From IMG/VR virus record IMGVR_UViG_3300047372_000605, positions 28,959 through 92,958 of that record: a stretch of DNA of 64,000 nucleotides. One strand, 5' to 3'. This DNA is from a virus. The position numbers were made by a program, and so were the translations under genes. The notes beneath the pieces were generated by a model. The model saw only the letters and a program-made list of their open reading frames with translations, had not been told where the DNA came from and made no database searches. Of this stretch, positions 1,155-33,495 are shown in pieces (position 1 is the stretch's first letter; each line of letters opens with the position of its first letter).

Positions 1155-1157
1155 GAT

Positions 1158-2867
1158 ATGGATAACAATTTAATAGCAGACACAACAAATTGGGAAAAGG
1201 GTAAAGATTATCCTGAGTGGATGAATGAAGTAGCACTAGCAACTATTTCTAAAGGATATTTAATCCCTGGAGAAACACCTAGAAAAGCCTATAAAAGAGT
1301 ATCAGGTGCAATATCTTCAAAATTAAACAGACCAGATCTAGAAAGCAAATTTTTTAAGTATATTTGGAATGGTTGGATTGGTTTAGCATCACCTGTTTTA
1401 TCTAACACAGGAACAGATAGAGGTTTACCTATTTCATGTTATGGTGTTGATACGCCCGATTCAATTAGAGGTATAGGTTTAACAAATGCAGAATTAATGA
1501 AACTTACCTCAGCAGGAGGAGGTGTTGGTATTTCTTTATCAAGAATTAGAGAAAGAGGTGCACCTATAAAAGGAAACGGCCAATCTGAAGGAGTAGTTCC
1601 ATGGGCTAAAATATATGATTCAACTATAATAGCTACTAACCAGGGTAGTGTACGAAGAGGTGCTGCTAGTGTTAATTTAGACATTAATCACCCTGATATT
1701 AGTGAATATCTTCAAATTAGAAGACCAAAAGGTGACCCAAATAGACAATGTTTAAATTTACATCAATGTGTAGTAGTAGATGATGCTTTTATGAGAAAGC
1801 TAAACGACAGAGATGAAGAAGCTATGGGATTATGGTTAGAAATTTTAAAAGCTAGAGTTGAAACAGGTGAACCTTACATAATGTTTAAAGATAATGTTAA
1901 TAAAGATAATCCAATGGCTTATCTAATGAATAATTTAGATGTTTCAATGACTAATATTTGTTCTGAGATTACATTACATACAGATGAAGAGCATAGTTTT
2001 ATATGTTGTTTAAGTTCTTTAAATTTAGCTAAATACGATGAATGGAAAGATACAGATGTAGTAGAAACTGCTACATATTTTTTAGATGGTGTAATGCAAG
2101 AATTTATTGATAAAACCAGTGGTCAAGAATCAATGAAACGAACACATAGACATGCTGTTAAAGGAAGAGCATTAGGTTTAGGTGTAATGGGTTGGCATAC
2201 ATTTTTACAGAAAAAGGATTTACCATTTAATTCAATAGCATCTACAGCTTGGACACATACTATATTTTCTCAAATAAAATTAAAAGCTGAAACAGCATCT
2301 AGACAATTAGCAGATGAATATGGAGAGCCTTTATGGTGTAAAGGAACAGGTATGAGGAATACTCATTTACTAGCAGTAGCACCAACAGTATCAAATTCAA
2401 GAATATCAGGATGCTCAGCAGGGATAGAGCCACAACCTGCAAATGTTTATACATTTAATGGAGCTAAAGGTACTTTTATAGTTAAAAATCCAGAATTAGT
2501 AGCTAAATTAAAAACTACTAAAAACAATACTGATAAAATATGGGATCAAATTTTAGCAGATAATGGTTCAGTACAAAATTTACCTGCAGAAGTACTACCT
2601 GAAGAAGATAAAGAAGTATTTTTAACATTTTCTGAAGTAAATCAATTAGGTTTAGTTCAGCAAGCAGCTATAAGACAAAAATACATAGATCAAACACAAT
2701 CATTAAATCTATGTTTTGATCCTACAGATTCTCCTCGATGGATTAATCAAGTTCATTTAGAAGCTTGGAAATTAGGAGTAAAAACATTATATTATTTAAG
2801 AACAGATTCAGTTATTAAAGGAGATTTAGGATCTCGTGTAGCAGATTGTGTATCTTGTGATGGATAA
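1158..2867 (+). CDS. nrdA: Ribonucleotide reductase class I alpha subunit, compact, no ATP-cone
   Basis: ISCY, TNICSE, APTVSNS, KTLYYLR and C-terminal CVSCDG. Confidence 0.95.
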   Translation: MDNNLIADTTNWEKGKDYPEWMNEVALATISKGYLIPGETPRKAYKRVSGAISSKLNRPDLESKFFKYIWNGWIGLASPVLSNTGTDRGLPISCYGVDTPDSIRGIGLTNAELMKLTSAGGGVGISLSRIRERGAPIKGNGQSEGVVPWAKIYDSTIIATNQGSVRRGAASVNLDINHPDISEYLQIRRPKGDPNRQCLNLHQCVVVDDAFMRKLNDRDEEAMGLWLEILKARVETGEPYIMFKDNVNKDNPMAYLMNNLDVSMTNICSEITLHTDEEHSFICCLSSLNLAKYDEWKDTDVVETATYFLDGVMQEFIDKTSGQESMKRTHRHAVKGRALGLGVMGWHTFLQKKDLPFNSIASTAWTHTIFSQIKLKAETASRQLADEYGEPLWCKGTGMRNTHLLAVAPTVSNSRISGCSAGIEPQPANVYTFNGAKGTFIVKNPELVAKLKTTKNNTDKIWDQILADNGSVQNLPAEVLPEEDKEVFLTFSEVNQLGLVQQAAIRQKYIDQTQSLNLCFDPTDSPRWINQVHLEAWKLGVKTLYYLRTDSVIKGDLGSRVADCVSCDG

Positions 2868-8359: not shown

Positions 8360-9523
8360 ATGATTAAAAAAATAACAGATAGGATATTCCCTGCTTTAAT
8401 AGCACTATCGGCACTTTCCGTATCTGCTTCGGCAGCATTTTATTCAATTAGTGGGTTAAGTAAATTATTTGCAGGAGCAGCATTTGCAGTTATAGTAATG
8501 GCAGCTTCATTGGAGATAGCCAAATTAGTAATAGCATCTTTACTTTACCAATATAGAAAAACACTACCTTTTTTACTTAAAGCTTATTTATCAATTGCTT
8601 GTGTGGTATTAATATTAATTACTTCAATGGGCATATATGGGTTTTTATCTGCTGCTTACCAAGATACAGCAAATAAAGAAGGTAATGCTGAAGCCCGAAT
8701 AGTGCTTATAGAAACTAAAAGAGATAATGTTAAAGAACAATTAGAAGTTTATACTGAAGAAAAAACATCTATAAATGAAGCAGTAGCTGAACTTAGAAAA
8801 GGTTTATCTAATAATAAAGTTCAATGGAGAGATAAAGAAACTAATCAAATTATTACTTCAACTTCTAGTAGAACTAGAAAAGCACTAGAAAAACAATTAG
8901 ATCAAGCTATAATCAGACAAACAGAAATAAATGCTAAGGTAGATGTTTTAAATGAAAAAATATTTGAATATGAAACCGAAATAGTAGAAACAAGAATAGG
9001 AGATGGTTCTACAAGTGAATTAGGCCCTCTTAAATATCTTTCAGGTTTAACAGGTTTACCTATGGATAAAATAATAAATTATCTTTTATTAACAATAATA
9101 TTTGTGTTTGATCCTTTAGCAATAGCACTAGTAATAGCAGCTAACTTCGCATTTGCTAGATTAAGAAAACCAACTAAAGAAAATTTATATGGCGAGACAG
9201 TAGAATGCTCTGTGCCCGAAGGTAGAGAATTTAATACTCCCTATGATATAGATGATTTAATACCTAATACTCCTTATACAGAAAAAGAAGTTAATAAAGT
9301 TATAAAAAATGAAGTTGAAAAAATAGAAAAAGAACCACCTGTTGATTTTGATGATGATTCTCAAACAATAAGTGATACTGGATCCAAAATTAAATCATTA
9401 GAATCTCAAAAAGAAAAAATCCAAAGAAATGGAGGTACTGCTAAAAAAGTAGGAGATGCTTTAGCTCAAATAGATAAAAAAATTAAAAAATTAAGAGACG
9501 AAGATAATACAATTACTTATTAA
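8360..9523 (+). CDS. Multi-TM + coiled-coil membrane protein
   Basis: Three to four N-terminal TM helices, long coiled coil, IFVFDPLAI helix. Confidence 0.6.
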   Translation: MIKKITDRIFPALIALSALSVSASAAFYSISGLSKLFAGAAFAVIVMAASLEIAKLVIASLLYQYRKTLPFLLKAYLSIACVVLILITSMGIYGFLSAAYQDTANKEGNAEARIVLIETKRDNVKEQLEVYTEEKTSINEAVAELRKGLSNNKVQWRDKETNQIITSTSSRTRKALEKQLDQAIIRQTEINAKVDVLNEKIFEYETEIVETRIGDGSTSELGPLKYLSGLTGLPMDKIINYLLLTIIFVFDPLAIALVIAANFAFARLRKPTKENLYGETVECSVPEGREFNTPYDIDDLIPNTPYTEKEVNKVIKNEVEKIEKEPPVDFDDDSQTISDTGSKIKSLESQKEKIQRNGGTAKKVGDALAQIDKKIKKLRDEDNTITY

Positions 9524-9563: not shown

Positions 9564-10076
9564 ATGACTAAAAATTATATTTACGATGTAGATGAAGATA
9601 CAGTTTTAGAAAAAATATCACAACTGCAACCCCTTAATTATAATCAATTTAGATGGTGGAGAAGATTTGATTCTCCAAACAAACCATTACACAAATATTC
9701 TGATTTACTAGATAAAATCCAAAATGGTGATTATGAATTCTCTCATTATTACTGGCAAGCAAGATATGCCGAAATGGAAATAAATCATTTACACCATGAA
9801 ACATATCCCGATGCTGTTTTATTTAATGAAAAAAATGCTATGAACGGTGCTAGAAGAAAACGTTTGTGGGATGATTTTGAAAAAGACGAAAAAGAACGTA
9901 TTAATAGTATTGAAAAAGATTTCTATATGAAGTTCAAAATGTCTCGAAAGCAAGTAAAAGAAGAAATGGGAGGGTTTGGAGGTACACTAGAAAATTTTTA
10001 TCATTATTGTGATAAAGAATTTGGAACAAGACGAGAAAAATTACAAACACGAGGAAGACCAAGAAAAGTTATATGA
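9564..10076 (+). CDS. Hypothetical protein
   Basis: 170-aa ORF, C-terminal TRGRPRK. Confidence 0.6.
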   Translation: MTKNYIYDVDEDTVLEKISQLQPLNYNQFRWWRRFDSPNKPLHKYSDLLDKIQNGDYEFSHYYWQARYAEMEINHLHHETYPDAVLFNEKNAMNGARRKRLWDDFEKDEKERINSIEKDFYMKFKMSRKQVKEEMGGFGGTLENFYHYCDKEFGTRREKLQTRGRPRKVI

Positions 10077-10864
10077 AAGTATCACATGAAGCACCAATTC
10101 CCTACATGAAACAAGTTAGGGGGTTAATTGATTATGACTATTGTTTACCACACTTGCTAGATGAAAGCGAAGAATATAAACAATATTTTCAAGAATCTAA
10201 AGAAATGCAACGTTATATTATTATGGATAATTCCTTACATGAATTAGGAGAACCATATGATTCAGAACGCCTAGCCCATTGGTTATATTATTTTAAACCT
10301 GATGAATTTATAGTACCAGATTACTGGCAAGATAAAACAGCTACATTAGTATCAGCTAAAGAATGGGTTAATAAAAAATATCCTGAAAATACAACCCCAG
10401 TAGCTGTAGTACAAGGTAAAAATGAAGGTGAAGCTAGAGAATGTTATAGAATATTAAAATATCAAGGTTATGAAAAAATAGCATTTAGTTATGGTGCAGA
10501 TTGGTATTATGGTAAGGGAAAAGAAACATCTAAAAATATAGAAAATATAACAGTAACAAAAGCTCATGGTAGATATAACTTTATAAAAGAATTATATGAA
10601 GAAGATACTATTAAAAAATCAGATAGAATACATTTATTAGGATGCAATATTCCTCAAGAATTTAAATGGTATAAAAATATGCCATTTATTAAAACAATAG
10701 ACACATCAAACCCAGTTATACATGGTTTATCAGGAATAAAATATGAGCCCTGGGGATTGGATAACAAAATATCTACTAAGGTAGATAAATTTAAAGGAGA
10801 AGCTGAACATTGGGAAACAGCAATTTATAACATACAATTATTTAAAACATTTATACCAACATGA
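10073..10864 (+). CDS. TGT-fold transglycosylase (DpdA-like)
   Basis: IIMDNS, VVQG, IHLLG, IDTSNP resemble TGT motifs; overlaps queC. Confidence 0.62.
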   Translation: MKVSHEAPIPYMKQVRGLIDYDYCLPHLLDESEEYKQYFQESKEMQRYIIMDNSLHELGEPYDSERLAHWLYYFKPDEFIVPDYWQDKTATLVSAKEWVNKKYPENTTPVAVVQGKNEGEARECYRILKYQGYEKIAFSYGADWYYGKGKETSKNIENITVTKAHGRYNFIKELYEEDTIKKSDRIHLLGCNIPQEFKWYKNMPFIKTIDTSNPVIHGLSGIKYEPWGLDNKISTKVDKFKGEAEHWETAIYNIQLFKTFIPT

Positions 10865-11730
10865 AACAAGCAGTATTAAGTTTAAGTGGTGGAATGGATA
10901 GCAGTACACTATTACTTCACCTATTAGCAAACGATTATAAAGTAACAGCTCTTAGTTTTGATTATGGTCAAAAACATAGAGTTGAATTAGAAAGAGCACA
11001 ACAATTAGTAGATTACTTAAATAGTAAAGCAAGTGAAACTTTAGCTAAAAATGATTTAGGAGAAACTATTAAACATAATTTTGAGCCTATTACATATCAA
11101 TCTATTAAATTAGACGGTTTAACATCACTATTAGATTCAGCTTTAGTAGAAGGTGGAGATGATGTTCCTGAAGGACATTATGAAGAAGATAATATGAAAG
11201 CAACAGTAGTGCCTAATAGAAATAAAATATTTTCATCACTAATACAATCTGTAGCATTATCAATTGCTAACAAAACAGAATCAGCGGTAAAAATAGCAAT
11301 GGGTATTCATGCTGGAGATCATGCAATTTATCCTGATTGTAGACAAGAATTTAGAGATGCAGATTATAAAGCATTTTCGGAAGGTAACTGGGAAGCATCA
11401 AGGGTATCATTATACACACCATATTTAAATGGAGATAAATTTGATATTTTAAAAGATGGAGAAGTATGTTGTAAAGAATTAGGGATTGATTTTAATGAAG
11501 TATATAAAAGAACTAATACATCATATAAACCAACAGCTGAAGGATTATCAGATTATAAATCAGCATCTTCAGTAGAAAGGATAGAAGCATTTTTAAAACT
11601 AGGTAGAAAAGACCCTGTCATATATGTAGATGGTTGGGACACAGCAAAATCTCATGTTGAAAAATTATTAGCCGATCATGCAAATAAGCCTAACATGAAT
11701 GATACTATCGACATGGTAAATAATATGTAA
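10861..11730 (+). CDS. queC: 7-cyano-7-deazaguanine synthase
   Basis: SGGMDS, FDYGQKH, VPNRN, YPDCR. Confidence 0.93.
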   Translation: MKQAVLSLSGGMDSSTLLLHLLANDYKVTALSFDYGQKHRVELERAQQLVDYLNSKASETLAKNDLGETIKHNFEPITYQSIKLDGLTSLLDSALVEGGDDVPEGHYEEDNMKATVVPNRNKIFSSLIQSVALSIANKTESAVKIAMGIHAGDHAIYPDCRQEFRDADYKAFSEGNWEASRVSLYTPYLNGDKFDILKDGEVCCKELGIDFNEVYKRTNTSYKPTAEGLSDYKSASSVERIEAFLKLGRKDPVIYVDGWDTAKSHVEKLLADHANKPNMNDTIDMVNNM

Positions 11731-11731
11731 T

Positions 11732-11887
11732 ATGAAGCAACCAGACGCAAAAAAGCATCAAGTAATAAGTTTTATAAAATCAGGAATTCGTATCTTAGGA
11801 TATGGATTTCTTGTAATTAATTTGCCTATTGCAGTAATTTTACTTATATTAAGTGAAGCAGTAGGAATAATAGAAGAATTAGTATAA
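11732..11887 (+). CDS. 51-aa membrane protein inside the que cluster (not in ORF track)
   Basis: MKQPDAKKHQVISFIKSGIRILG...SEAVGIIEELV*, exactly filling the queC-queD gap. Confidence 0.65.
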   Translation: MKQPDAKKHQVISFIKSGIRILGYGFLVINLPIAVILLILSEAVGIIEELV

Positions 11888-12351
11888 TGGGAAAATTTCA
11901 ATCAAGTAAAGTTTTTGACGGGTTTAGTACAGTGTTTCGTCAATGGAAAGCTGAAGATACACACTGTAGGTTTTTACATGGGTATGGTATTTCATTTAAA
12001 GTATATTTTGAAGGTGAATTAGATGGTAGAAATTGGGTTTGGGATTTTGGAGGAATGAAAAGAGCCAAAACTAAAATTGATGGTAAATCTCCTAAAGAAT
12101 GGTTTGATTTTATGTTTGACCATACTGTAATAATAGCAGAAGATGACCCAGGAATGGGTGGTTGGGAAACAATGAATAAATTGGGAGTTATTCAATTAAG
12201 AGTTATTGAAGCAACAGGAGCAGAAAAATTTGCAGAGTTTATCTTTAATAAAGTAAATGATTTTGTCCATGAAGAAACTGAAGGTAGAGTAAGAGTTACT
12301 AAGGTTAAATTTATGGAACATGGTAAAAATGCAGCTTACTACTGTGAATAA
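11887..12351 (+). CDS. queD: 6-carboxy-5,6,7,8-tetrahydropterin synthase
   Basis: [24 protein letters not shown]. Confidence 0.9.
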
Positions 12352-12358
12352 AAAAATA

Positions 12359-12443
12359 GGAAAGATGGCAGAGCGGTCGAATGCGCTGGTCTTGAAAACC
12401 AGTTTACTGAAAAGTAACGGGGGTTCGAATCCCTCTCTTTCCG
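12359..12443 (+). tRNA. tRNA-Ser(UGA)
   Basis: GGAAAGA/TCTTTCC acceptor, CTGGT-CTTGAAA-ACCAG anticodon arm, long variable arm, GGTTCGAATCC; CCA not encoded. Confidence 0.93.
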
Positions 12444-12450
12444 CAAAAAT

Positions 12451-12521
12451 TACCGGGTCGTCTAGTGGCAGGACATTTGGTTTTGGTCCAGAGAACGGAG
12501 GTTCGAATCCTTCCCCGGTAA
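12451..12521 (+). tRNA. tRNA-Gln(UUG)
   Basis: TACCGGG/CCCGGTA acceptor, loop TTTTGGT, GGTTCGAATCC. Confidence 0.9.
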
Positions 12522-12530
12522 CTATTAAAT

Positions 12531-12607
<77 letters not shown>

Positions 12608-12621
12608 CTAAAATTAAATAA

Positions 12622-13392
12622 ATGAAAAGAATAGAAGATTATAATAAAGTATTACCAGTTTTAGAAGTATATAGGTGTGTACAATCAGAAGGATCTAGAT
12701 TTGGTAGACCTACAATAGCAGTTAGAACAACAGGTTGTACTCACAGATGCTATTTTGGAGAAGGTGGTTGGTGTGATTCTTGGTATACAAGTATACATCC
12801 AGAAAAAGGTACATTTACATTTAATGATATTATTAAAATATATGATGATAATCCTCATGTAAAAGAAATGATGTTAACAGGTGGTTCACCTACAATGCAC
12901 CCTGCTTTAGTAAATGAAATAACACACTTTGCAAATGAAAGAAATATACTTGTTACAATTGAAACTGAAGGTTCTCATTTTCTTGAAACCGATTATCCCT
13001 TGGATCTTATTAGTCTTAGTCCTAAGTTTTCTAATTCAGTTCCTGTAATAGGAGCTATTACACCTAATGGAGCAGTAGCAGATGAAAGAATGATTAAAGT
13101 CCATAACAGACTTAGATTAAATAAAGAAGCTATAGGAAAAACAATTGCATACCATAAAGACTATCATTTTAAACCAGTATGGGATGGCACAGATAAAAAT
13201 TTAGAAGAAATAGAGGCATTTAGAGTTGAAATGGATATACCAAAGGACAAAACATTTATTATGCCAGCTGGAGATACTAGAGAAACACTAATAAAAATGT
13301 ATCCTTTAGTATTTGAATTATGTGCTGAAAAAGGATATAATATGACAGGTAGAGACCATATTATAGCATTTGATACAGAACGAGGTGTCTAA
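12622..13392 (+). CDS. queE: 7-carboxy-7-deazaguanine synthase (radical SAM)
   Basis: QSEG, GCTHRC...WCDS, TGGSP, IETEG, SLSPK. Confidence 0.9.
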   Translation: MKRIEDYNKVLPVLEVYRCVQSEGSRFGRPTIAVRTTGCTHRCYFGEGGWCDSWYTSIHPEKGTFTFNDIIKIYDDNPHVKEMMLTGGSPTMHPALVNEITHFANERNILVTIETEGSHFLETDYPLDLISLSPKFSNSVPVIGAITPNGAVADERMIKVHNRLRLNKEAIGKTIAYHKDYHFKPVWDGTDKNLEEIEAFRVEMDIPKDKTFIMPAGDTRETLIKMYPLVFELCAEKGYNMTGRDHIIAFDTERGV

Positions 13393-13519
13393 GGAGGAAG
13401 CATTAGAAATATTAGAAGAAATAAAAGAAAACGTAAACGTTTGTTGTGCCATTACTATGGAACCAGACGAAGTATTAGATTTAATAGAAAAATTAGAAGA
13501 ATATTTAAGAAATGAATAA
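13385..13519 (+). CDS. 44-aa hypothetical protein (not in ORF track)
   Basis: GTG-start MSKEEALEILEEIKENVNVCCAITMEP...RNE* bridging queE and the nuclease. Confidence 0.5.
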   Translation: MSKEEALEILEEIKENVNVCCAITMEPDEVLDLIEKLEEYLRNE

Positions 13520-14087
13520 AATAAAAATAACATTAATTTTAATACTTAGCAGTGTTTTAAATTATAGTCAAGTAATAAAAACTGACATATTTACAGTTAA
13601 ATATTCTGAAGAATATCAACAACCAATTTGGTTAGAATATACAATACAATGCCCAAACGGACACGCTGAAAGAACAGGTATGAATTTTTGGGTACCTAAA
13701 GGGGTAAAAACATCAGATGATGCAGATTATGTAGATAATATTTACGATAAAGGTCACTTAGCACCTGCGGCAGCATTTAACTGTGATAAAGAAACCCTAC
13801 TTAAAACATTTTCATACTTAAACTCAGCTTTACAACATGAAGGACTAAACAGAGGACAATGGGCAAGACTAGAATCATTTGAAAGAAGTTTAGCTAATTT
13901 CTTTGATAAAGAAGTAAAAGTAAGAGTAGATGTCTTATTCGAAGGTAAATTAAAAAAGGTAAAAGGTGGAGCTACAATACCTAGTGGCTTTAGAAAAACA
14001 ATAATAATGGGAGATATTAAAAAAATATTTGAATTTCCAAACGCCGATACAAAAGGTACAAGTTGGATAGAATATCTCAAAAAATAA
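13512..14087 (+). CDS. DNA/RNA non-specific endonuclease (His-Me finger), secreted
   Basis: Signal-like N-terminus; DKGHLAPAA, LNRGQW..LE. Confidence 0.88.
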   Translation: MNKIKITLILILSSVLNYSQVIKTDIFTVKYSEEYQQPIWLEYTIQCPNGHAERTGMNFWVPKGVKTSDDADYVDNIYDKGHLAPAAAFNCDKETLLKTFSYLNSALQHEGLNRGQWARLESFERSLANFFDKEVKVRVDVLFEGKLKKVKGGATIPSGFRKTIIMGDIKKIFEFPNADTKGTSWIEYLKK

Positions 14088-14093
14088 AAAATT

Positions 14094-14249
14094 ATGAAAG
14101 TAACAAATTTATGGAATAAACTTAGAATATTAAGTGGTAATATTTTAGAAATTAAGATTAGGATAAGTAAATTTATAATATTAGATTTATTTGTAAGTAC
14201 AAACAGATTTAAATTAATGATTTTAAATATTGGATTTGAAAGCAAGTAA
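14094..14249 (+). CDS. 51-aa hypothetical protein (not in ORF track)
   Basis: MKVTNLWNK...IGFESK* fills the gap. Confidence 0.45.
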   Translation: MKVTNLWNKLRILSGNILEIKIRISKFIILDLFVSTNRFKLMILNIGFESK

Positions 14250-14805
14250 AATATTACTTATACTTTTAGTTTTAATAGGTTGCAATAAAGAAGATGAAGA
14301 TGGTTATAGAGTTTATACTATAGATAGAGGTAACCATTACTCAGATGGCCCTATAGATAAATTATTTGGTAATAATAATAGAGCTGAATCATGGGAATGG
14401 GAAGTTATATTTGAACCATCTTGTATTTACTCAGAATCAGATTTATTTAATCCCTCAAATTATTTAGACGTTAATAAATTAATAGGTTTTTCAGATTGTG
14501 ACAGACACCATTCTCAATATTCATGTAGAATAGGTTGGAGAGCATCAGGTGATTCTATTGAATTACTAATATATAAGAGGGATGATAATAATATAGAATT
14601 TAAATCCCTTAAAAAAGTATACCCAGACCAAATAGTAAACGTTACTTTAGATTTTAAAGACACTATTTACACATCTTGTATAGATGGAACTTGTGATACG
14701 TTAATAAGACCTTGTCCAGATTGGTCAGGTAGAAAATATTCACTGTTTCCATTCTTTGGTGGTCAAGAAACGGCACCACATAAAATGAAAATTAGAATAA
14801 AATGA
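14230..14805 (+). CDS. Putative lipoprotein
   Basis: KILLILLVLIG-C lipobox followed by NKEDED. Confidence 0.6.
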   Translation: MDLKASKILLILLVLIGCNKEDEDGYRVYTIDRGNHYSDGPIDKLFGNNNRAESWEWEVIFEPSCIYSESDLFNPSNYLDVNKLIGFSDCDRHHSQYSCRIGWRASGDSIELLIYKRDDNNIEFKSLKKVYPDQIVNVTLDFKDTIYTSCIDGTCDTLIRPCPDWSGRKYSLFPFFGGQETAPHKMKIRIK

Positions 14806-15239
14806 AAAAATACAATGTAGATTGGGATGAAATAAAAGCTTTAGTATTCAGGCTATCCCATAAAATAATTACCAACGATTTAGAATTTAAAAACATATAT
14901 GGTTTACAAAGAGGAGGTTTAATACCTGCAGTAATGTTATCTCACCAATTAGGAATACCTATGGCTAAAGGTGATATAGGACCTGACACTTTAATAGTAG
15001 ACGATATTTGTGATAGTGGAGAAACACTAGATAATTTAGTAAAAAAATATCAAACATTATATTCTTACCCATTTAACCTTAAAACAGCAGTTTTACATTA
15101 TAAACCTCATACTTCATGTTTTGAACCAACTTTATATGCCGAAAAATGGAATAAGGATGTTTGGTTAATATATCCTTGGGAAAAAGAAGATTCAGAAGCT
15201 ATACAAGATTACAAAGTAAAAGTTGGAGAATTGCAATAA
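14802..15239 (+). CDS. Purine-type phosphoribosyltransferase
   Basis: RGGLIP, LIVDDICDSGET PRPP-binding motif, WLIYPWE. Confidence 0.9.
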   Translation: MKKYNVDWDEIKALVFRLSHKIITNDLEFKNIYGLQRGGLIPAVMLSHQLGIPMAKGDIGPDTLIVDDICDSGETLDNLVKKYQTLYSYPFNLKTAVLHYKPHTSCFEPTLYAEKWNKDVWLIYPWEKEDSEAIQDYKVKVGELQ

Positions 15240-15251
15240 TTTTATTATATT
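15222..15251 (+). promoter_or_regulatory. TTG-N20-TATATT promoter (variant) upstream of folE
   Basis: GTTGG...ATTATATT, conserved spacing. Confidence 0.55.
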
Positions 15252-15268
15252 AACGTAAAAATTAGTTA

Positions 15269-15964
15269 ATGGAGAACAAACGAAGAAAAATACACGAGGA
15301 GTTAGAAGTAGTAAAAGAAGGTTTTGCAAACGGAGTTGCACCTGGTTTTCCACTCCCACAATCTGAAAAAGATAAGATGATAGATAAAGCAGAATTGGCG
15401 TATGGTCAATTTTTAGATGCTTTAAAATGTGATTGGAGAAATGATCCAAATTCAATGGAAACACCTAGACGTGTAGCTAAAGCTTATGTTAATGATTTAT
15501 GGGCGGGTAGATACACAGCAATGTCTCCTATTACATCTTTTCCTTCTGATGGTTATGATGGTATTATTATAGAAAGAAACATACCTTTAACATCAATGTG
15601 CTCTCATCATCATCAAACAATTGGAGGTGTAGTTCATATTGGTTATATAGCAGGAGAAGGTGGTCAAGTAATTGGGTTATCAAAACTAAACAGAATTGTA
15701 GAATTATTTGGTAGAAGAGGAGCAATACAAGAGCAACTAACCTCAGCAATTCATAATGCCGTATCTAAAATTACAGAAGGTAATAAAGGTGTTATAGTTA
15801 CAATAGTAGGTACTCATAATTGTGTTAGTTGTAGAGGAGTAAAACATCAAGGAGCAGCCATGGTTACAACTAAAGCTTCAGGTGTGTTTAGAGAAAACGA
15901 TAATTTAGCTAGAAAAGAATTTTTTGACAGCCTAAAGATTAACAACGGAGGGCATAATATATAA
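15269..15964 (+). CDS. folE: GTP cyclohydrolase I
   Basis: ETPRRVAK, SMCSHH, GLSKLNR, QEQLT, HNCVSCRG. Confidence 0.95.
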   Translation: MENKRRKIHEELEVVKEGFANGVAPGFPLPQSEKDKMIDKAELAYGQFLDALKCDWRNDPNSMETPRRVAKAYVNDLWAGRYTAMSPITSFPSDGYDGIIIERNIPLTSMCSHHHQTIGGVVHIGYIAGEGGQVIGLSKLNRIVELFGRRGAIQEQLTSAIHNAVSKITEGNKGVIVTIVGTHNCVSCRGVKHQGAAMVTTKASGVFRENDNLARKEFFDSLKINNGGHNI

Positions 15965-15967
15965 ACA

Positions 15968-16609
15968 ATGAGTAAACAAAGAACATTAAATGAGCTGAGA
16001 CAAACTAAGGATGCACATTATATTCCAAAGTATGATCCTCAAACAGGAGATAAAAATCCTCATTATAAAGAACTAACAGGTGAAGAACTTGAAGAGATGA
16101 TGAATGAAACAGATGCACCTCCAGGAGTTCAATTTGTAAATGAAGTAGAAATATTTAATGCCACATTTGGTAAACCAAACAACTATGTCCCAACAATCCC
16201 AGAAAAGAAAGAAACAGATTTCGTCTACGACTTTTGTATCGAAGAAATCACAGAATATCAAGAAGCTTGCAAAAACGGAGACATCGTGGAAATTTTGGAT
16301 GCTATTTGCGATATTGCTTATGTTACCTTGGGGAATGCCACTATGTTACATGGCCTTAAAGATAAGATTTGGCCAGCGTATAAAGAAGTCCAGGCGTCAA
16401 ATATGTCTAAGTCTTGCAAAACTGAAGAAGAAGCAGCACAAACTGTCACTCAAAGAGCTAAGGAACAAGGTGAAGAATGCCATTTTGAAAAAGTAGGAGA
16501 TAGATATGTTGTATACAGAACAAGAGACAGAAAGGTTATGAAATCTATTAACTATTTTAGACCAGATTTAAAGCAGTTTTTCACTGAAGAGGAATTAAAA
16601 AATGTTTAA
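15968..16609 (+). CDS. All-alpha NTP pyrophosphohydrolase (MazG/PRA-PH-like)
   Basis: EEITEY...EILDAICDIAYV...SNMSK...KVMKS. Confidence 0.85.
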   Translation: MSKQRTLNELRQTKDAHYIPKYDPQTGDKNPHYKELTGEELEEMMNETDAPPGVQFVNEVEIFNATFGKPNNYVPTIPEKKETDFVYDFCIEEITEYQEACKNGDIVEILDAICDIAYVTLGNATMLHGLKDKIWPAYKEVQASNMSKSCKTEEEAAQTVTQRAKEQGEECHFEKVGDRYVVYRTRDRKVMKSINYFRPDLKQFFTEEELKNV

Positions 16610-18278
16610 AAAAGCATTTGCACGAAGAATAGGAGGAAACAAACATTTAATACATCTTTGGACTGACACAGGTTATGAGAAAGTTGAATGGACAAACTTT
16701 GCCTATAAAGAATGCAGTGAAGCAGATGCTGATTATATAGGTTTAAATGGCGAACCACTAAGAAAGACTAGTAAATGGGGTCCTGATGATTCAGGACTCC
16801 ATTTTCATGACATGAAAGCATATCAAAAATTCTTAATTGAAAAATATGGTACTAATGATGAACCATCTACTACACACAGAGAATTATTTTTTGATATTGA
16901 AACTGAAATGGGTGATGCTTTAACACCTGAATACATTCAAAATGCACCTAAAAAAGTTACATCTATAGCTTGGTATGATAAACAAGTAGATGAATGGGGT
17001 ATATTAATTTTAGATACTAAAAACCAATTAGAACATACTAAAGCTAGAAACAAAGAAATTACACCTTGTAAAACCGAAAGTGATTTACTAGCTAAATTCT
17101 TAGAAAAATTTAGAGAAATCGATCCTGATATTATAATAGGATACAATAGTGATTATTTTGATATACCATACCTATACTACAGAATGTGTAATGTATTAGG
17201 TGAAGATTGGGCTAGACATTTATCTCCTATTGGTTATGTAAGAGAAACACCTTGGTTTAAAGACCAATATATTCAAATAGCAGGTGTTGAATCTCTTGAT
17301 TACATGCGTTTACATAAAAAGTTTAGTTGGAAAGATGAACCATCATGGAAATTAGATGCTATTGGAGAAAAATATGCAGGTATAAATAAAGTTGAATATG
17401 AAGGTAATTTAGATTCTTTATTTGAAAGTGACATAAATAAATTCATCCAATATAACTTTGTTGATGTTGAAATACTAGTTGAATTAGATAAAAAATTAGA
17501 ATATTTAGCTTTAACTAAAAATCTATCACATAAAGGTAAACATAACTATAGTGAGGTATATGCTAATACAAATACCCAAGATGGTGCTATTTCGGCTTAC
17601 TTATTATCCCAAAATATTATCCCACCTGCTAAAGACAAAGACTTAAAAGCAGAAAAAGGATATGCTGGAGGTTATTTATTTTGCCCTAAAGCAGGAATAT
17701 ACAACTATATGTTTGATGAGGATTTAACTTCACTATATCCCTCAATTATTATGTCTCTTAATATAGGTAAAGAAACATTAAAAGCAAGAATCATAGATGC
17801 TGATGATAGAAATAATAGATTAGGATTAAATGATTTAAAAGCTAAAGACCCAGATAGTACTATTATTATTAAAAACCATAAAGGCAAACGAGCTGAAGTT
17901 ACAATAGCTAACCTATTAAAATTTATAGAAGGAAATCAATTTACTATATCAGCTAATGGTACTATGTTTGCTACAAATAGACAATCAGTACTATCAACTA
18001 TACTAGCTAAATGGTTTGGTGAAAGAGTATTATATAAAGGTAAAATGAAAAAAGCATACCAAGCTAAAGATAAAGAAGCAGGAGCTAAATATCATTTACT
18101 ACAATATACAATGAAAATTTTATTAAATAGTTTATATGGTGCAACAGCATTACCTAGTTTTAGATATGGTAATGTTAATTTATCAAAAGCTATAACACTT
18201 TCAGGACAAAGAATTATTCAAGAATCAGCTTTAATAGCAAATAAAAAAATGAACGAGGAGATAAAAAATGTTAAGTAA
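16602..18278 (+). CDS. Family B DNA polymerase, N-terminal part (exonuclease, motifs A and B)
   Basis: FFDIET, GYNSDYFD, YNFVD, DLTSLYPS, KILLNSLYG. Confidence 0.93.
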   Translation: MFKKAFARRIGGNKHLIHLWTDTGYEKVEWTNFAYKECSEADADYIGLNGEPLRKTSKWGPDDSGLHFHDMKAYQKFLIEKYGTNDEPSTTHRELFFDIETEMGDALTPEYIQNAPKKVTSIAWYDKQVDEWGILILDTKNQLEHTKARNKEITPCKTESDLLAKFLEKFREIDPDIIIGYNSDYFDIPYLYYRMCNVLGEDWARHLSPIGYVRETPWFKDQYIQIAGVESLDYMRLHKKFSWKDEPSWKLDAIGEKYAGINKVEYEGNLDSLFESDINKFIQYNFVDVEILVELDKKLEYLALTKNLSHKGKHNYSEVYANTNTQDGAISAYLLSQNIIPPAKDKDLKAEKGYAGGYLFCPKAGIYNYMFDEDLTSLYPSIIMSLNIGKETLKARIIDADDRNNRLGLNDLKAKDPDSTIIIKNHKGKRAEVTIANLLKFIEGNQFTISANGTMFATNRQSVLSTILAKWFGERVLYKGKMKKAYQAKDKEAGAKYHLLQYTMKILLNSLYGATALPSFRYGNVNLSKAITLSGQRIIQESALIANKKMNEEIKNVK

Positions 18279-18531
18279 ACAATCCATAAGAAAAGAACAC
18301 ATTATACTTTTAAATAGAGTAAAAATGTCAAAAGATGAAATCATAGAAATATCTAAAGATTTCACAGAACCTGAAGAACAACGATTTAGAAAAATATTAC
18401 AACAAGGTGGTAAAATTTCTATTCAAGGTAAAAAATTTGAAATAGTAAAAGATTTAAAAGACTATGCTAGAAATAGTAAAGGTGAATATGAAGCTCCAGC
18501 TAAACCTCATAGAAACGAAGACTGGGAATGA
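18268..18531 (+). CDS. 87-aa protein between the two polymerase halves
   Basis: Overlaps both neighbours (ATGA coupling at 18528). Confidence 0.65.
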   Translation: MLSKQSIRKEHIILLNRVKMSKDEIIEISKDFTEPEEQRFRKILQQGGKISIQGKKFEIVKDLKDYARNSKGEYEAPAKPHRNEDWE

Positions 18532-19505
18532 AGCATTTAGAAGACACACCATGGTGGATATGTGATCCTGAAGATACTAACTATTGTGCTTATGTAGACA
18601 CAGATAGTAATTATTTTCATGCTGAACCTTTATTAAGACATAGATTTCCTAATTTTGATGGAATGTCTGATAAGGAAAAGGATACTGAACTAGAAAAAAT
18701 TGCCCTAGAATATCAAGATATTATTACAGACCATTACAATAATGTAGCTAAGGACGTTTTTAATATAAATCAATTTGAATGGTTTGATAAGCCACATTGG
18801 TTAGAAATGAAAACTGAATGTGTAATAAGATCAGCTTATTTTAGAGCAACTAGAAGGTATGCACAATGGATCACTAAACAAGAAGGTGTTGAAAAAGAAA
18901 CACTTGATATTAAAGGTTTAGAGTTCCAAAAATCTAATTTTCCACCTATACTAGGTAAATTCTTTAATGATGTTTTAGTAGACGTTTTAAAAGGTGAAAC
19001 ACAAGATGATATAGATGCTAGAGTAAAAACATTTAAAAAGCAAGTATTAGATGGAACCATACCATTAACAGATTTAGGTAACCCAACATCAGTAAAACAA
19101 ATAGGTAAACATCAAGGCAAACCAGCCAGAAAAGGAGAAATGTTATCAACATTTAATCATGTAGAAAATAAAGTAGGCAGAAAATTAGGTGCACCTGCAG
19201 CAGTAAAAGCAGCTATTAGATATAACGATTTACTTAGATTTTGGAAATTAGATAGCAAATACGAATTAATTACCAATGGTACTAAAATAAAATGGATTTA
19301 TCTTAAAAATAACCCATATCAAATTGAAGAAATAGCATTTCTAGATTATGATATGCCAGAAAAAATTCGTACATTCATTGAGCAGTATGCTGATAGAAAA
19401 AAAGTATTTGAAAGTATTTTATTAAATAAATTAGAGGGATTCTATGGTGATTTAGAATGGAACTTAAACTTAAACCCCTACATTAATCAATTTTTTGACT
19501 TATGA
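18528..19505 (+). CDS. Family B DNA polymerase, C-terminal part (motif C, thumb)
   Basis: YVDTDS, RRYA, IKGLE; C-terminal INQFFDL resembles a clamp-binding motif. Confidence 0.92.
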   Translation: MKHLEDTPWWICDPEDTNYCAYVDTDSNYFHAEPLLRHRFPNFDGMSDKEKDTELEKIALEYQDIITDHYNNVAKDVFNINQFEWFDKPHWLEMKTECVIRSAYFRATRRYAQWITKQEGVEKETLDIKGLEFQKSNFPPILGKFFNDVLVDVLKGETQDDIDARVKTFKKQVLDGTIPLTDLGNPTSVKQIGKHQGKPARKGEMLSTFNHVENKVGRKLGAPAAVKAAIRYNDLLRFWKLDSKYELITNGTKIKWIYLKNNPYQIEEIAFLDYDMPEKIRTFIEQYADRKKVFESILLNKLEGFYGDLEWNLNLNPYINQFFDL

Positions 19506-20261: not shown

Positions 20262-20790
20262 GCAAACTTAGGATGCACAAACAGCTCACCAAAATGGGAG
20301 CTTAGTAATTTAATAACAGGGTAGTTTAAACACCCACAAAACTAAATGATATGAGTACATTATTTCACGAACGAACACCGTTCGACATTTTATTCAAAAA
20401 CTTCTTTCAAGCAGAAGGAAAATTTCAACCAACAACATTCGAAAACAAACAACCTCACCCACTAGATATATTCTATAATGATGATGGTCTCAATTTTGAG
20501 ATTGCCTGTACAGGTTTAACTAAAAAAGATATACAATTAAAAATTGATGGAGATCAATTAAATATATCTTATGATAAACCATCAGAAGAAGAATCATATG
20601 AGGGTTATATCTATAAAGGACTAGCTAAAAGGTCTTTTAAACTAGGATATAAAATAGCAGCTAAATTTGATTTATCAAAAATAGAAGCTAAAATGGAAAA
20701 TGGTTTACTCCATTTATTCATCCCAACAGCCGCAGATAAAAAATCAAAAATAGTAACAATAAAATAAAAAAAACTGCATCCTAGGTTTGC
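20262..20790. repeat. 16-bp inverted repeat bracketing hsp20
   Basis: GCAAACTTAGGATGCA (20262-20277) vs TGCATCCTAGGTTTGC (20775-20790); the only mismatch is a G-U pair in RNA. Confidence 0.85.
20351..20767 (+). CDS. Small heat-shock protein (Hsp20)
   Basis: YKGLAKRSF...AKMENGLLHLFIP alpha-crystallin domain. Confidence 0.92.
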   Translation: MSTLFHERTPFDILFKNFFQAEGKFQPTTFENKQPHPLDIFYNDDGLNFEIACTGLTKKDIQLKIDGDQLNISYDKPSEEESYEGYIYKGLAKRSFKLGYKIAAKFDLSKIEAKMENGLLHLFIPTAADKKSKIVTIK

Positions 20791-20814
20791 TTATTAAACT
20801 ATTTTTATTATATT
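20785..20814 (+). promoter_or_regulatory. Promoter variant upstream of groES
   Basis: TTTGC...ATTATATT (spacing 1 nt shorter). Confidence 0.5.
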
Positions 20815-20842
20815 ACCCACAAACATTAAATTAAATTAAGTT

Positions 20843-21208
20843 ATGGAATTAGAAGCATTATTCGATGCCGTTATTGTTAAACCTCAAGAAGAGGAAGAGA
20901 CACAATATGGATCAATAGTAGTACCCGATTTAGGAAAAGACAGAAACGAACATGGAGAAGTAGTTGCTGTGGGTCCTGGAAGACAAGTAGCAGGAATTGG
21001 CTTTGTAGAAACTAATATTAAAGTTGGAGATAAAGTAATTCTACCAACAATAGGTTTTACTAAACTTGAACATAAAGGAGATGAATATTATATCGGTTCT
21101 GAAAATCAAATATTAGCAAGAATAAATAATACAACATCAGTAGAGGATGTTTTAGCAGAAACAGAAGTATCAGAGGAAGATTTTGATGCTCTTAAATCAA
21201 TAGATTAA
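20843..21208 (+). CDS. groES: Co-chaperonin GroES
   Basis: GSIVVPD, GEVVAVGPG, VGDKVI. Confidence 0.92.
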   Translation: MELEALFDAVIVKPQEEEETQYGSIVVPDLGKDRNEHGEVVAVGPGRQVAGIGFVETNIKVGDKVILPTIGFTKLEHKGDEYYIGSENQILARINNTTSVEDVLAETEVSEEDFDALKSID

Positions 21209-21209
21209 G

Positions 21210-22817
21210 ATGAGTAAAATTATAGAATTTGGCCCTGAAGCCAGAAAAAAACTAGTAAAAGGAATAGACCAAATAGCAGATGCTGTAGTATCTACATTAG
21301 GTCCAAATGGTAGGAATGTTGTTATTTCTAAACCAGGCCAAACACCACAATCAACAAAAGATGGTGTAACAGTAGCAAAAAATATTTCATTAGAAGATCC
21401 AACTGAAGAGTTAGGAGTTCAAATGCTTAAACAAGCAGCTATTAAAACCGCAGATAAAGCAGGAGATGGTACAACTACTTCTACTCTATTAGCTAGAGAA
21501 ATGGTTAAAGCAGGTTTATCAGCTTTAGATAGTGGAGCAAATGCTGTTGATATTAAAAGAGGAATTGATAAAGCTGTAGAACAGGTAATTCACCATTTAA
21601 CCCCATTTCAAGAAGATGTCTCATCTCAAGAACAATTAGAGCAAGTAGCTACTATTTCAGCTAATAACGATGAAACTATAGGTAAATTAATTGCTACTGC
21701 AATGGAAAAAGTAGGTAGAGAAGGGGTAGTACATATTGAAGAATCTAAAACAGGTGAAACTTATCTTGAAACCGTAGAGGGTATGCAATTTGATAGAGGT
21801 TATAAATCTCCTTATTTTGTTACTGATAATAATACTATGTCTACTACTTTGAATGATTGTTATGTTTTAATAGCAGATCATACTTTTACCCAAGTAAAAG
21901 AATTATTACCGATATTAGAAAGTGTATCAAATACAAATAAATCCCTTTTAATCATTGCCAAAGACATAGACAATGAAGCATTAGCTACCCTTATTGTAAA
22001 TAAAATGAGAGGTTCATTAAAAGTATGTGCTGTTAAAGCTCCTGAATTTGGAGATAGACAAAAATTAGTTCTAGATGACATAGCTGTTCTAACTGGAGGT
22101 CAAGTATTCAGTAAAGAAAAAGGTATGAAACTAGAAAAGTTTAGTTGGGAATGGTTTGGTGAAGCTAGAGTATCTACTATTACTAAAGAAAAAACTACAA
22201 TTGTAGATGGTAAAGGTTCAGAAGAAGCAATTACTGCTAGAGTAGAAGAATTATCTCAACAAATAGAAAGAGCTGATACACCATTTGCAATGGAAAAGTT
22301 ACAAGATAGAATGTCTAAATTCGTAGGTGGAGTAGCAATTGTTCATGTAGGTGGAAATACTGAAACTGAGATGAATGAAAGAAAAGATAGAGTAGATGAT
22401 GCCCTTAATGCCACAAAAGCAGCTATTGAAGAAGGTATTCTACCAGGAGGAGGAGTTGCAATAGCAAGAGCTACACAGTGGGTAGAATATAATGGTAATG
22501 TAGATTTTAACATTGGAGTAGATATTGTTAAAATAGCATGTCAAAAACCATATGAACAAATCTTAAAAAATGCTGGAATAAATGAAATTCCTGAATTGGC
22601 AGAAGATGGAGAGTGGGAAGGATTTGATATTAGACAAAATAAAATGGTAGACTTTAAAGAAGCGGGTATTATAGATCCATTTAAGGTTACTAGAAGTGCA
22701 TTACAAAATGCTGCATCAATAGCTGGAACTATTCTGTTAACAGAAGCCACAGTTGTTGATAAACCATCAGAAAATACAACACCAGAAATAGATCCATCCA
22801 TGATGGGTATGATGTAA
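21210..22817 (+). CDS. groEL: Chaperonin GroEL
   Basis: TLGPNGRNV, KDGVTVAK, GDGTTT, C-terminal MMGMM. Confidence 0.97.
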   Translation: MSKIIEFGPEARKKLVKGIDQIADAVVSTLGPNGRNVVISKPGQTPQSTKDGVTVAKNISLEDPTEELGVQMLKQAAIKTADKAGDGTTTSTLLAREMVKAGLSALDSGANAVDIKRGIDKAVEQVIHHLTPFQEDVSSQEQLEQVATISANNDETIGKLIATAMEKVGREGVVHIEESKTGETYLETVEGMQFDRGYKSPYFVTDNNTMSTTLNDCYVLIADHTFTQVKELLPILESVSNTNKSLLIIAKDIDNEALATLIVNKMRGSLKVCAVKAPEFGDRQKLVLDDIAVLTGGQVFSKEKGMKLEKFSWEWFGEARVSTITKEKTTIVDGKGSEEAITARVEELSQQIERADTPFAMEKLQDRMSKFVGGVAIVHVGGNTETEMNERKDRVDDALNATKAAIEEGILPGGGVAIARATQWVEYNGNVDFNIGVDIVKIACQKPYEQILKNAGINEIPELAEDGEWEGFDIRQNKMVDFKEAGIIDPFKVTRSALQNAASIAGTILLTEATVVDKPSENTTPEIDPSMMGMM

Positions 22818-25771: not shown

Positions 25772-25995
25772 AAAAAAGTAAAGTTATACAAGCTTTAACT
25801 GCACAGGCTAATGCAGATAAAGCAAAAGCCATGATGGCACTAGATTTATTAGAAAACCAGGCAGTAGGAATTGGTGATCACACAGTAAATGATTTTATGA
25901 AAGATGCTACAGAAGCATTAGAATTATTAACTGATGCAGATGATAGATTAGAAACATTAAATAAATATTGGGGTGAACAACCTCTACCTTTTTAA
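25768..25995 (+). CDS. Hypothetical helical protein ending PLPF
   Basis: VGIGDH motif, helical hairpin. Confidence 0.6.
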   Translation: MKKSKVIQALTAQANADKAKAMMALDLLENQAVGIGDHTVNDFMKDATEALELLTDADDRLETLNKYWGEQPLPF

Positions 25996-25996
25996 T

Positions 25997-26371
25997 ATGA
26001 ATAAGGAAGAATTAATAAAAGAATTAGAAGAATCAGACCACATAGTGGCTCATTTTGAAAAAGAATATCCTGAATTATCTCAGGAATTTAAAATAATCCA
26101 GGATGAAATGTATAGAATGTTTGCTGCTAAACATATGGATTATGGTTTGCAAAACATTTCATTAGGAGGAGATTTAACTAAAGAAAACGATAAAAAATTT
26201 TCATTAACAGGTTTAGCTATTAGGTTAACAGATAAAATTTCAAGATTAAGAAATTTACTTACTAATGGTAGGAATTTTGTTAAAGGTGAAGGAATGGAAG
26301 ACACGTTTATAGACATAGCTAATTATGGTATAATTGGTTTACTAGTAGGACGTGACAAGTGGAAAAAATAA
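25997..26371 (+). CDS. DUF1599-like nucleotide-modification-associated protein
   Basis: KHMDYG, IRLTDKISRL, EDTFIDIANYGII. Confidence 0.75.
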   Translation: MNKEELIKELEESDHIVAHFEKEYPELSQEFKIIQDEMYRMFAAKHMDYGLQNISLGGDLTKENDKKFSLTGLAIRLTDKISRLRNLLTNGRNFVKGEGMEDTFIDIANYGIIGLLVGRDKWKK

Positions 26372-29010: not shown

Positions 29011-29011
29011 T

Positions 29012-30334: not shown

Positions 30335-30336
30335 AA

Positions 30337-30798: not shown

Positions 30799-30801
30799 GA
30801 T

Positions 30802-31425: not shown

Positions 31426-31715
31426 AAATTTATGTAGATATTGATGAGACAATATGTTTTTATGATGGAGAACGTGAATACCCCAACGCTATACCTAGTA
31501 AAGAAAATATAGCTAAAATAAATAAGTTATATGATGAAGGTCATGAAATAACTTATTGGACAGCAAGAGGAACTGTTACGGGCATTAATTGGTTTAATTT
31601 AACAAAAGAACAACTTACAAAATGGGGATGTAAATGGCATAGTTTAGTTGTTGGTGTAAAACCTGCTTATGATTTACTGATATGTGATAAAACTAAAAGA
31701 ATAGAAGAAATATGA
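31422..31715 (+). CDS. Minimal HAD phosphatase
   Basis: DIDET, WTARG, KP.YD...CDK. Confidence 0.8.
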   Translation: MKIYVDIDETICFYDGEREYPNAIPSKENIAKINKLYDEGHEITYWTARGTVTGINWFNLTKEQLTKWGCKWHSLVVGVKPAYDLLICDKTKRIEEI

Positions 31716-33474: not shown

Positions 33475-33495
33475 TAAAAATTTATCGTATATTTG
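33464..33495 (+). promoter_or_regulatory. Promoter with full Bacteroidota -7 box upstream of neuB
   Basis: TTG-N20-TATATTTG (TAnnTTTG). Confidence 0.75.

Follow-up and report, generated by a model that had tools for sequence, protein, structure and literature searches.

Replacement of every guanine (G) in the DNA is known solely from phages with a transglycosylase of the DpdA3 group. Whether the modified base enters after replication, or beforehand through the nucleotide pool, is the question raised by a gene cluster in the IMG/VR contig IMGVR_UViG_3300047372_000605, which derives from an uncultured marine phage. The window analyzed in the current study is a stretch of 64,000 nucleotides (bases 28959–92958 of the 92,958-base contig). 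According to CheckV the contig is 59% complete, which bears on all absences from it reported below. The open reading frames (ORFs) of the region of interest (positions 10073–19505 of the window) all lie on the + strand, and encode a protein with the fold of tRNA-guanine transglycosylases (TGT), QueC, QueD, QueE, a purine phosphoribosyltransferase (PRTase), FolE, a MazG-like nucleoside triphosphate (NTP) pyrophosphatase and a family B DNA polymerase (PolB; Table 1). An original prediction for this DNA had named these genes, all of them correctly located, and had proposed that they serve a pre-replicative substitution of G. In the current study the module was found to be a member of an already described kind, namely DpdA3 guanine replacement. 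Its best explanation, held with about even confidence, is a post-replicative exchange of guanine for a 7-deazaguanine in DNA, in which the PRTase would recycle guanine and the MazG-like protein would clean up dUTP.

On the evidence of homology, the TGT-fold protein is a member of the DpdA3 subfamily. In tblastn searches it aligned over 98–99% of its length with proteins of CP220-group Campylobacter phages and of Flavobacterium phage immuto_2-6A (37–38% identity, E about 1e-44), and it shared 20% identity (E 4.6e-4) with gp042 of Cellulophaga phage phiST. It had no Pfam match at E <= 0.01 (hmmscan), no match in NCBIfam and no significant match among PDB sequences. PF01702, the Pfam family of canonical TGT and ArcS, gave no match at E <= 1 in a six-frame search of the genomes G000–G004, this contig among them. 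An AlphaFold2 model (predicted local distance difference test score, pLDDT, 93.9; built on 38 sequences) was matched by Foldseek to the Zymomonas TGT 2pot (E 7.4e-8) and to DpdA 7ui4, a DNA preQ0 insertase (E 1.5e-7). Alignment with VIA-align gave Z 18.0 against ArcTGT 1iq8 (232 residues aligned, root-mean-square deviation (rmsd) 3.0) and Z 17.9 against 7ui4 (228 aligned, rmsd 2.9). When the protein was aligned with its CP220, immuto and phiST counterparts, residues D52-N53, D83, Q114, H187, L189, G190 and D210 proved invariant. In hhalign the D52 motif lay opposite the DSG motif of three phage DpdAs, at a non-significant probability of 1.2%. The isoelectric point (pI) was also considered as an indicator of DNA binding and was discarded, as the DpdA3 median of 5.87 (n=86) gave no discrimination from the control phage DpdAs (5.47–7.99).

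Cui et al. 2023 (PMC10516641), who named the DpdA3 group and count CGPG_00065 of phiST among its members, report complete replacement of dG by dADG in CP220, by dDG in phiST and by fdPreQ1 in immuto_2-6A, and conclude that insertion is post-replicative. Because of the homology of the DpdA3 protein to those of phages with complete G replacement, DNA is well supported as the target of the cluster, as judged from sequence. The original prediction had likewise pointed to DNA, and had suggested that the TGT be assigned to a DpdA subfamily, which homology now provides.

The four enzymes of the preQ0 pathway are encoded in the cluster, and QueF (PF14489) was not found in the 92,958-base contig. In the relatives G001–G005, three of which are 93–100% complete, QueF gave two sub-threshold matches only, one of them inside FolE by its coordinates, and tblastn with the DpdN, DpdL and QueF homologs of reference phages found none in the contig. 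With QueC, QueD, QueE and FolE present and QueF absent, the modified base is predicted to be preQ0, i.e. dPreQ0 in DNA. The earlier observations that queF and arcS are lacking (PF14489 and PF01702 in the contig), and that none of the three tRNAs has a GUN anticodon, were borne out. QueC is most similar, among cultured phages, to its counterpart in immuto_2-6A, which presumably must deliver preQ0 for the QueF of that phage. By eye, the QueC of the contig is enlarged by an insertion within the protein and by an extension at the C-terminus, and the C-terminal cysteine cluster that serves as the zinc site of cellular QueC is not apparent. QueE matched the Radical_SAM family with an E value of 1.8e-6 and 28.7 bits, slightly below the Pfam cut-off of 29.5. 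At the DNA level, queE is 79% identical to that of phiST over 335 nt, and this was the only match, confined to the phiST group, in a megablast search of the region against phages. Relative to the literature examined, a DpdA3 configuration with preQ0 alone is new among the characterized DpdA3 phages.

A DpdA3 profile detected a relative in at least 575 stretches of IMG/VR, of which 80 loci were kept, and a search of protein databases gave 2,532 matches at E <= 0.001. The comparative set consisted of 88 loci and records of unequal length, in which genes were labeled with local hidden Markov models (HMMs) and DpdA3 is present throughout by construction. The 35 that span DpdA3 to PolB, this contig among them, are referred to as full-span loci. 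Their gene order is RNR (ribonucleotide reductase), 387-residue ORF, 170-residue ORF, DpdA3, QueC, QueD, (thioredoxin), QueE, (secreted nuclease), PRTase, FolE, NTP pyrophosphatase, PolB and GroEL. QueC, QueD and QueE were each found in 35/35 full-span loci, and FolE (30) or FolE2 (5) likewise in all 35.

The link between the PRTase and the deazaguanine cluster, as put forward in the original prediction, is real. A PRTase was present in 34 of the 35 full-span loci (locus L012 had none), and FolE or FolE2 was no more than 150 nt away in 29 of these 34. The family PF00156 was found in four of seven DpdA3 or DpdA3-like whole records (this contig, immuto_2-6A, phiST and the Brevundimonas siphophage MaInes), and in none of 12 control phages, which carry FolE together with DpdA types other than DpdA3. 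The hypergeometric probability of this split is 35/3876, about 0.009, for lineages that are not fully independent. In MaInes, an unrelated phage, the order dNMP kinase-FolE-PRTase occurs near a DpdA3-like gene (HMM E 3e-7).

Two types of PRTase, both of them 6-oxopurine enzymes, occupy this position. A motif-based recount after alignment A4 gave 12 Gpt-like and 22 Hpt-like enzymes, and no locus with both. The PRTase of the contig is Gpt-like, with a type I PRTase domain. Its best PDB matches were Sulfolobus GpT-1 (4trb, 4.9e-14), 1vdm and the xanthine-guanine PRTase (XGPRT) of E. coli, but it scored below the equivalog level of cellular xanthine/guanine PRTases (NF006613, 53 bits against a cut-off of 138). 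Residues D67, D68, D71, G73 and T75, in the region of the acidic motif that binds phosphoribosyl pyrophosphate (PRPP), were invariant in the 22 sequences of alignment A4, and D71 is presumably the Asp that contacts purine N7. The Hpt-like enzymes aligned end to end with bacterial hypoxanthine PRTases (1j7j, 2.3e-22; TIGR01203, 2.7e-34). Mapped on a 37-row DpdA3 tree, the two types needed five changes, at least three of which were forced by well-supported branches, indicating that the PRTase was replaced repeatedly while its slot beside FolE was kept. Guanine is a substrate common to enzymes of the XGPRT type and the hypoxanthine-guanine type, which fits their interchangeability in the cluster. 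Homologs of the two types occurred in 15 and 18 of 50,697 phage records, and 11 of the 15 were immuto, phiST-group or MaInes-type phages. The PRTase would most likely recycle the guanine expelled from DNA, and a role at the head of a new nucleotide-pool route is improbable. No description of its role was found in literature searches, and the main text of Cui et al. (PMC10516641) does not contain the term 'phosphoribosyl'. Relative to the literature examined (for Cui et al., the main text), it is new that a 6-oxopurine PRTase has been conserved beside FolE through repeated replacement.

The MazG-like protein was 72.5% identical to immuto_63, and is far more conserved than DpdA3. Its acidic metal-binding residues (E59, E92, E93, E96, D111 and D115) were invariant in 29 sequences. 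No PDB sequence matched at E <= 0.5, and the closest solved structure to its model (pLDDT 85.8) was Deinococcus DR2231 (Foldseek 1.6e-4, Z 10.3, 136 residues aligned), whereas the MazG-like pyrophosphohydrolase of phage S-2L (7ody) ranked 13th (Z 6.5, 94 aligned, rmsd 4.0, 14% identity). DR2231 was crystallized with dUMP and dUMPNPP, according to the titles of the PDB entries, and the title of a reference describes it as exclusively active on dUTP. In four of the 35 full-span loci, which form one clade, MazG was missing and the same slot held a protein of 165–167 residues resembling dUTPase and dCTP deaminase (DCD), with matches to DCD (PF22769, down to 9e-13), to dUTPase and to the NCBIfam dUTPase NF002598 (1.3e-23). 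The MazG-like and DCD-like types were mutually exclusive across five genomes. The structural model and this exchange of genes suggest that the MazG-like protein is most likely a stand-in for dUTPase that cleans up dUTP at the polymerase. Nothing points to a dGTPase activity, and the dGTP-depleting role given to this protein in the original prediction is not supported.

A dedicated PolB, another element of that proposal, fared no better. The contig has PolB, whereas immuto and Youna2 have PolA and phiST has PolIII-alpha, indicating that no dedicated polymerase family tracks DpdA3. The dZ system of S-2L (PurZ, MazZ, DatZ) is comparable in having an all-alpha enzyme of the MazG fold near replication genes (7ody), but differs in that the present cluster shows no sign of canonical-dNTP removal, has a dUTP enzyme as the nearest structure to its MazG-like protein, and has no linked polymerase family.

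In the proposed pathway, FolE, QueD, QueE and QueC would convert GTP to the free base preQ0, which DpdA3 would exchange for guanine in replicated phage DNA, probably at every G by analogy with the three characterized DpdA3 phages. Each exchange would expel one guanine, and each preQ0 would cost one GTP. The PRTase would combine the expelled guanine with PRPP to form GMP, and host kinases would convert this to GTP, closing a loop that supplies FolE. The MazG-like protein encoded before the polymerase would clean up dUTP and would not be a dGTPase.

Several observations weigh against such a post-replicative exchange with guanine recycling. DpdA3 modified no DNA in E. coli in the trials described by Cui et al. 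(PMC10516641), so that action of DpdA3 at the DNA level, and hence the post-replicative model, is also inferred. About 25 residues that 4trb and 1vdm have after the first conserved block, ahead of the PRPP motif, are missing from the Gpt-like PRTase, whose residues 52–61 lie opposite residues 55–89 of 4trb and 54–78 of 1vdm. This gap is common to 11 short phage forms, including that of immuto and nine related environmental phage proteins; phiST and MaInes keep part of the segment. The gap is presumably at the site of the flexible catalytic loop of type I PRTases, and the enzyme may not be a standard catalyst. PF00156 was absent from the whole records of CP220, Chryseobacterium phage MA9V-3 and Weizmannia phage Youna2, and the 95% complete relative G001 had no PRTase at all, suggesting that the PRTase is favored but dispensable. 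TubE, the purine-type PRTase of the tubercidin cluster, is described as using 7-carboxy-7-deazaguanine (CDG) and PRPP (PMC6112128), so that a deazapurine substrate for a PRTase has precedent. The relative G004 encodes a canonical dUTPase besides the DCD-like protein of the cluster, a poor fit with a plain dUTPase role. Moreover, all 35 full-span loci belong to one phage lineage, and the counts drawn from them are not independent.

The TubE precedent (PMC6112128) lends itself to a pre-replicative explanation, in which the PRTase would convert preQ0 and PRPP to a ribonucleotide, host kinases and RNR would carry this to the dNTP, MazG would remove dGTP, PolB would build the genome and DpdA3 would mop up residual G. 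Such a role would suit a PRTase that selection has kept as an integral component of the cluster and that low-level phages of the DpdA1/DpdA2 type lack, as well as the presence of RNR, NTP pyrophosphatase and polymerase in one gene block. A modified-dGTP route is mentioned as proposed for Campylobacter phages by Hutinet et al. 2019 (PMC6884629), and the inactivity of DpdA3 in E. coli (PMC10516641) is also in its favor. The explanation is nevertheless unlikely, given that MazG is similar to an enzyme specific for dUTP and gives way to dUTPase/DCD-like proteins in some loci, that DpdA3 phages differ in their polymerase family, and that CP220 replaces all G without a PRTase. All PRTases retain the putative N7-contacting Asp, and DpdA3, although present in all 88 loci and records (by construction), would be left without an essential role. 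Nor was a nucleotide kinase found in the contig by tblastn with four reference kinases (from immuto and phiST, and two from CP220), and PF02223 gave a single sub-threshold match in five relatives. Of the original prediction, the cluster and its PRTase link have stood, while the evidence from MazG, polymerase and kinases spoke against pre-replicative substitution, which stays a minority possibility.

It is also conceivable, but very unlikely, that DpdA3 acts on free nucleotides, swapping the base of dGMP or dGTP for a 7-deazaguanine that is then phosphorylated and polymerized, with the PRTase still recycling guanine. The bare barrel of 263 residues, against 413 in DpdA 7ui4, would agree with this, as would the P-loop or kinase-like neighbors of other DpdA3 genes: CP220 gp055 (HD and P-loop) and gp057, immuto_68 (32% identical to gp057), phiST gp041 and a MA9V-3 protein matching AAA_18 (1.5e-7). 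Such neighbors might just as well be ATPases that partner a DNA enzyme, however, and no kinase of this kind was found in the lineage of the contig (the contig itself and five relatives). Cui et al. (PMC10516641), who saw no DNA activity of DpdA3 in E. coli, also quote the detection of the 7-deazaguanine ADG, as a nucleoside, in cytoplasm from infected cells. On the other hand, no dGTP-specific hydrolase is evident, and all TGT-family enzymes among the top fold matches act on a polynucleotide. Taken as a whole, complete G replacement made in the nucleotide pool, whether by the PRTase (as TubE with CDG) or by DpdA3 acting on dGMP, and then by RNR, host kinases and polymerase, is doubtful, if less so than either of its versions. 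The PRTase and MazG could finally be general nucleotide-supply genes of a replication module, whose adjacency to the cluster reflects shared ancestry only. The conserved order in 35 loci of one lineage would be expected from this, and so would the lack of a PRTase in three of the six cultured DpdA3 or DpdA3-like phages checked and in G001, and the MazG-like genes in 2/12 control phages. It is quite unlikely in view of the replacement of the PRTase type at least three times with the slot beside FolE kept, the recurrence of the FolE-PRTase adjacency in the unrelated Brevundimonas siphophage, the 0/12 PRTases in controls, and the rarity of PRTase homologs (15 and 18 of 50,697 phage records), 11/15 of which occur with a DpdA3 or DpdA3-like gene.

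Post-replicative exchange with guanine recycling is thus preferred, and the cluster can be set beside known systems on that basis. Phage immuto_2-6A (PMC10516641) has similar DpdA3 (37% identity), QueC (64%), FolE (61%), PRTase (49%) and MazG-like (72.5%) proteins. It also shares the order PRTase-FolE-NTP pyrophosphatase, with a DUF4494 gene inserted after FolE in immuto, followed by polymerase and GroES/GroEL. Unlike the contig, in which they were not found, it has QueF, a DpdN formyltransferase and a thymidylate-kinase-like gene; its polymerase is PolA instead of a split PolB, and its base is formyl-preQ1, where preQ0 is predicted here. Both phiST (dDG) and CP220 (dADG) combine a DpdA3 homolog with FolE, QueD and QueE. 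In phiST a MazG-type gene follows FolE and a Gpt-like PRTase is present, but QueC is lacking, DpdL is present, the MazG is of PF03819 type and the PRTase gene adjoins RNR, at 17.7 kb downstream of DpdA3. CP220 differs in having no PRTase, and HD/P-loop and kinase genes beside its DpdA3. The DpdA1/DpdA2 preQ0 insertases (7ui4; phages CAjan, Rosebush and ValKK3) share the TIM-barrel fold and Que gene partners, but are proteins of 306–413 residues compared to 263 here, where moreover no Pfam TGT match was obtained, and their phages have no PRTase (0/12). Replacement of G in DpdA1/DpdA2 phages is reported by Cui et al. (PMC10516641) as 0.1–30%. The tubercidin and toyocamycin clusters, as described in PMC6112128, unite FolE, QueD, QueE and a purine-type PRTase; they have no DpdA/TGT and make free nucleosides.

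Table 1. Features of the deazaguanine cluster and its surroundings, in window positions (aa, amino acids)
Feature	Position	Strand	Evidence or remark
Class I RNR, small (168–1154) and large (1158–2867) subunits	168–2867	+	PF00268 5.3e-63; PF02867 1.9e-105
Conserved 387-aa protein, two genes upstream of DpdA3	8360–9523	+	Homologs in 48/88 loci and records; no Pfam match
Conserved 170-aa protein	9564–10076	+	Homologs in 63/88 loci and records; overlaps DpdA3 start by 4 nt
DpdA3-type 7-deazaguanine transglycosylase, 263 aa, minimal TGT-fold TIM barrel	10073–10864	+	tblastn, fold match
QueC (7-cyano-7-deazaguanine synthase), 289 aa	10861–11730	+	PF06508 7.5e-38
QueD (6-carboxytetrahydropterin synthase)	11887–12351	+	PF01242 3.5e-13; 63% identity to phiST QueD
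tRNA-Ser(UGA), tRNA-Gln(UUG), tRNA-Ala(UGC), between queD and queE	12359–12608	+	ARAGORN; no GUN anticodon
QueE (7-carboxy-7-deazaguanine synthase, radical SAM)	12622–13392	+	PHROG 2076 QueE-like 3.6e-48
Non-specific DNA/RNA endonuclease, accessory	13512–14087	+	PF01223 3e-25; signal-peptide-like hydrophobic N-terminus; in 8/35 full-span loci
Lipoprotein-like 191-aa protein, between endonuclease and PRTase	14230–14805	+	1/88 loci and records (this contig alone); lipobox-like N-terminus by eye
Short Gpt-like 6-oxopurine PRTase, 145 aa	14802–15239	+	PF00156 2.7e-8, 33.7 bits (cut-off 26.3); ends 29 nt before FolE
FolE (GTP cyclohydrolase I), first pathway enzyme	15269–15964	+	PF01227 9.2e-42; 61–62% identity to immuto and phiST FolE
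MazG-like all-alpha NTP pyrophosphohydrolase (PRA-PH type)	15968–16609	+	PF01503 1.3e-11, 45.2 bits (cut-off 21.3); overlaps PolB start by 8 nt
Family B DNA polymerase, split: 16602–18278 (558 aa) and 18528–19505 (325 aa)	16602–19505	+	PF00136 8.7e-24, PF03104 5e-17; second part PHROG 262 2.2e-41
DUF1599	25973–26371		6e-9

The 170-residue protein encoded directly upstream of DpdA3 is a candidate partner of the latter. It had no Pfam, PHROG or NCBIfam match, and the ESM Atlas held no named relative (best score 0.86). The 387-residue protein before it shows, by eye, hydrophobic segments at the N-terminus and a charged C-terminal half. The large subunit of RNR was encoded no more than 10 kb upstream of DpdA3 in 21/35 full-span loci. 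P-loop or kinase-like small genes adjoin DpdA3 in phiST, MA9V-3, CP220 and immuto_2-6A (L002:10049-10546, L102:8474-8944, L013:13868-16361, L001:13570-14094), and may encode ATPase partners or nucleotide kinases; bacterial DpdB is reportedly a precedent for an ATPase as the partner of a DNA enzyme. In Rosebush and phi3ST:2, DpdA has ParB-like genes as its neighbors.

Between queD and queE a thioredoxin gene was found in 27/35 loci (e.g. L042:13490-13744), though not in this contig. No family matched the lipoprotein-like protein, and a staphylococcal-nuclease-like family occurs at a similar place in 5/88 loci and records. The endonuclease and lipoprotein-like genes between queE and the PRTase may serve purine scavenging. 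An ORF of 87 residues (18268–18531), of no known family, separates the two PolB halves. PolB is a single ORF in relatives (888 residues in L066, 864 in L077), and in L012 a 224-residue ORF lies between the halves. Genes for Hsp20, GroES and GroEL (20351–22817) follow the polymerase, and GroES/GroEL are found likewise in immuto_2-6A. DUF1599, which the original prediction had thought might take part, was found in 2/9 DpdA3 or DpdA3-like records (G000 and G001, alone among 21 searched) and is not linked to the cluster.

Further downstream, a glycan-synthesis island (27553–38309) encodes several glycosyltransferases of families GT1 and GT2, a PhyH-like dioxygenase, the nonulosonic acid synthase NeuB (4.2e-39) and a GT29 sialyltransferase (1.1e-29), along with a weak cytidylyltransferase match and a protein that combines an FkbM methyltransferase with GT2. 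Synthesis or transfer of a sialic-acid-like sugar by the phage is suggested by this gene content. A protein of 986 residues (47573–50533) has at its end a sorting domain for type IX secretion (PF18962, 8.8e-14), which points to a host among the Bacteroidota, and the phage probably infects a member of this phylum. DNA near-identical to positions 10073–19505 (at least half of sampled words) was indexed for 11 studies dating from 2017 to 2025, in a total of 14 runs of seawater, marine or viral metagenomes; the contig may derive from one of these runs. All 24 sequencing runs listed are stored in the form of assembled contigs, a form that bears no signal of modification.

The lineage is large, with at least 575 IMG/VR stretches and 2,532 protein matches. 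From a DpdA3 module ending at preQ0, full substitution of the genome by dPreQ0 is predicted, compared to a reported G replacement of at most about 30% in DpdA1 phages. The published claim of post-replicative insertion rests, in the text of Cui et al. (PMC10516641), on the presence of DpdA3, which was not reconstituted. If the replacement were made in the nucleotide pool after all, the conclusion that all insertion is post-replicative would be wrong for the most efficient subfamily, which is abundant in seawater viromes.

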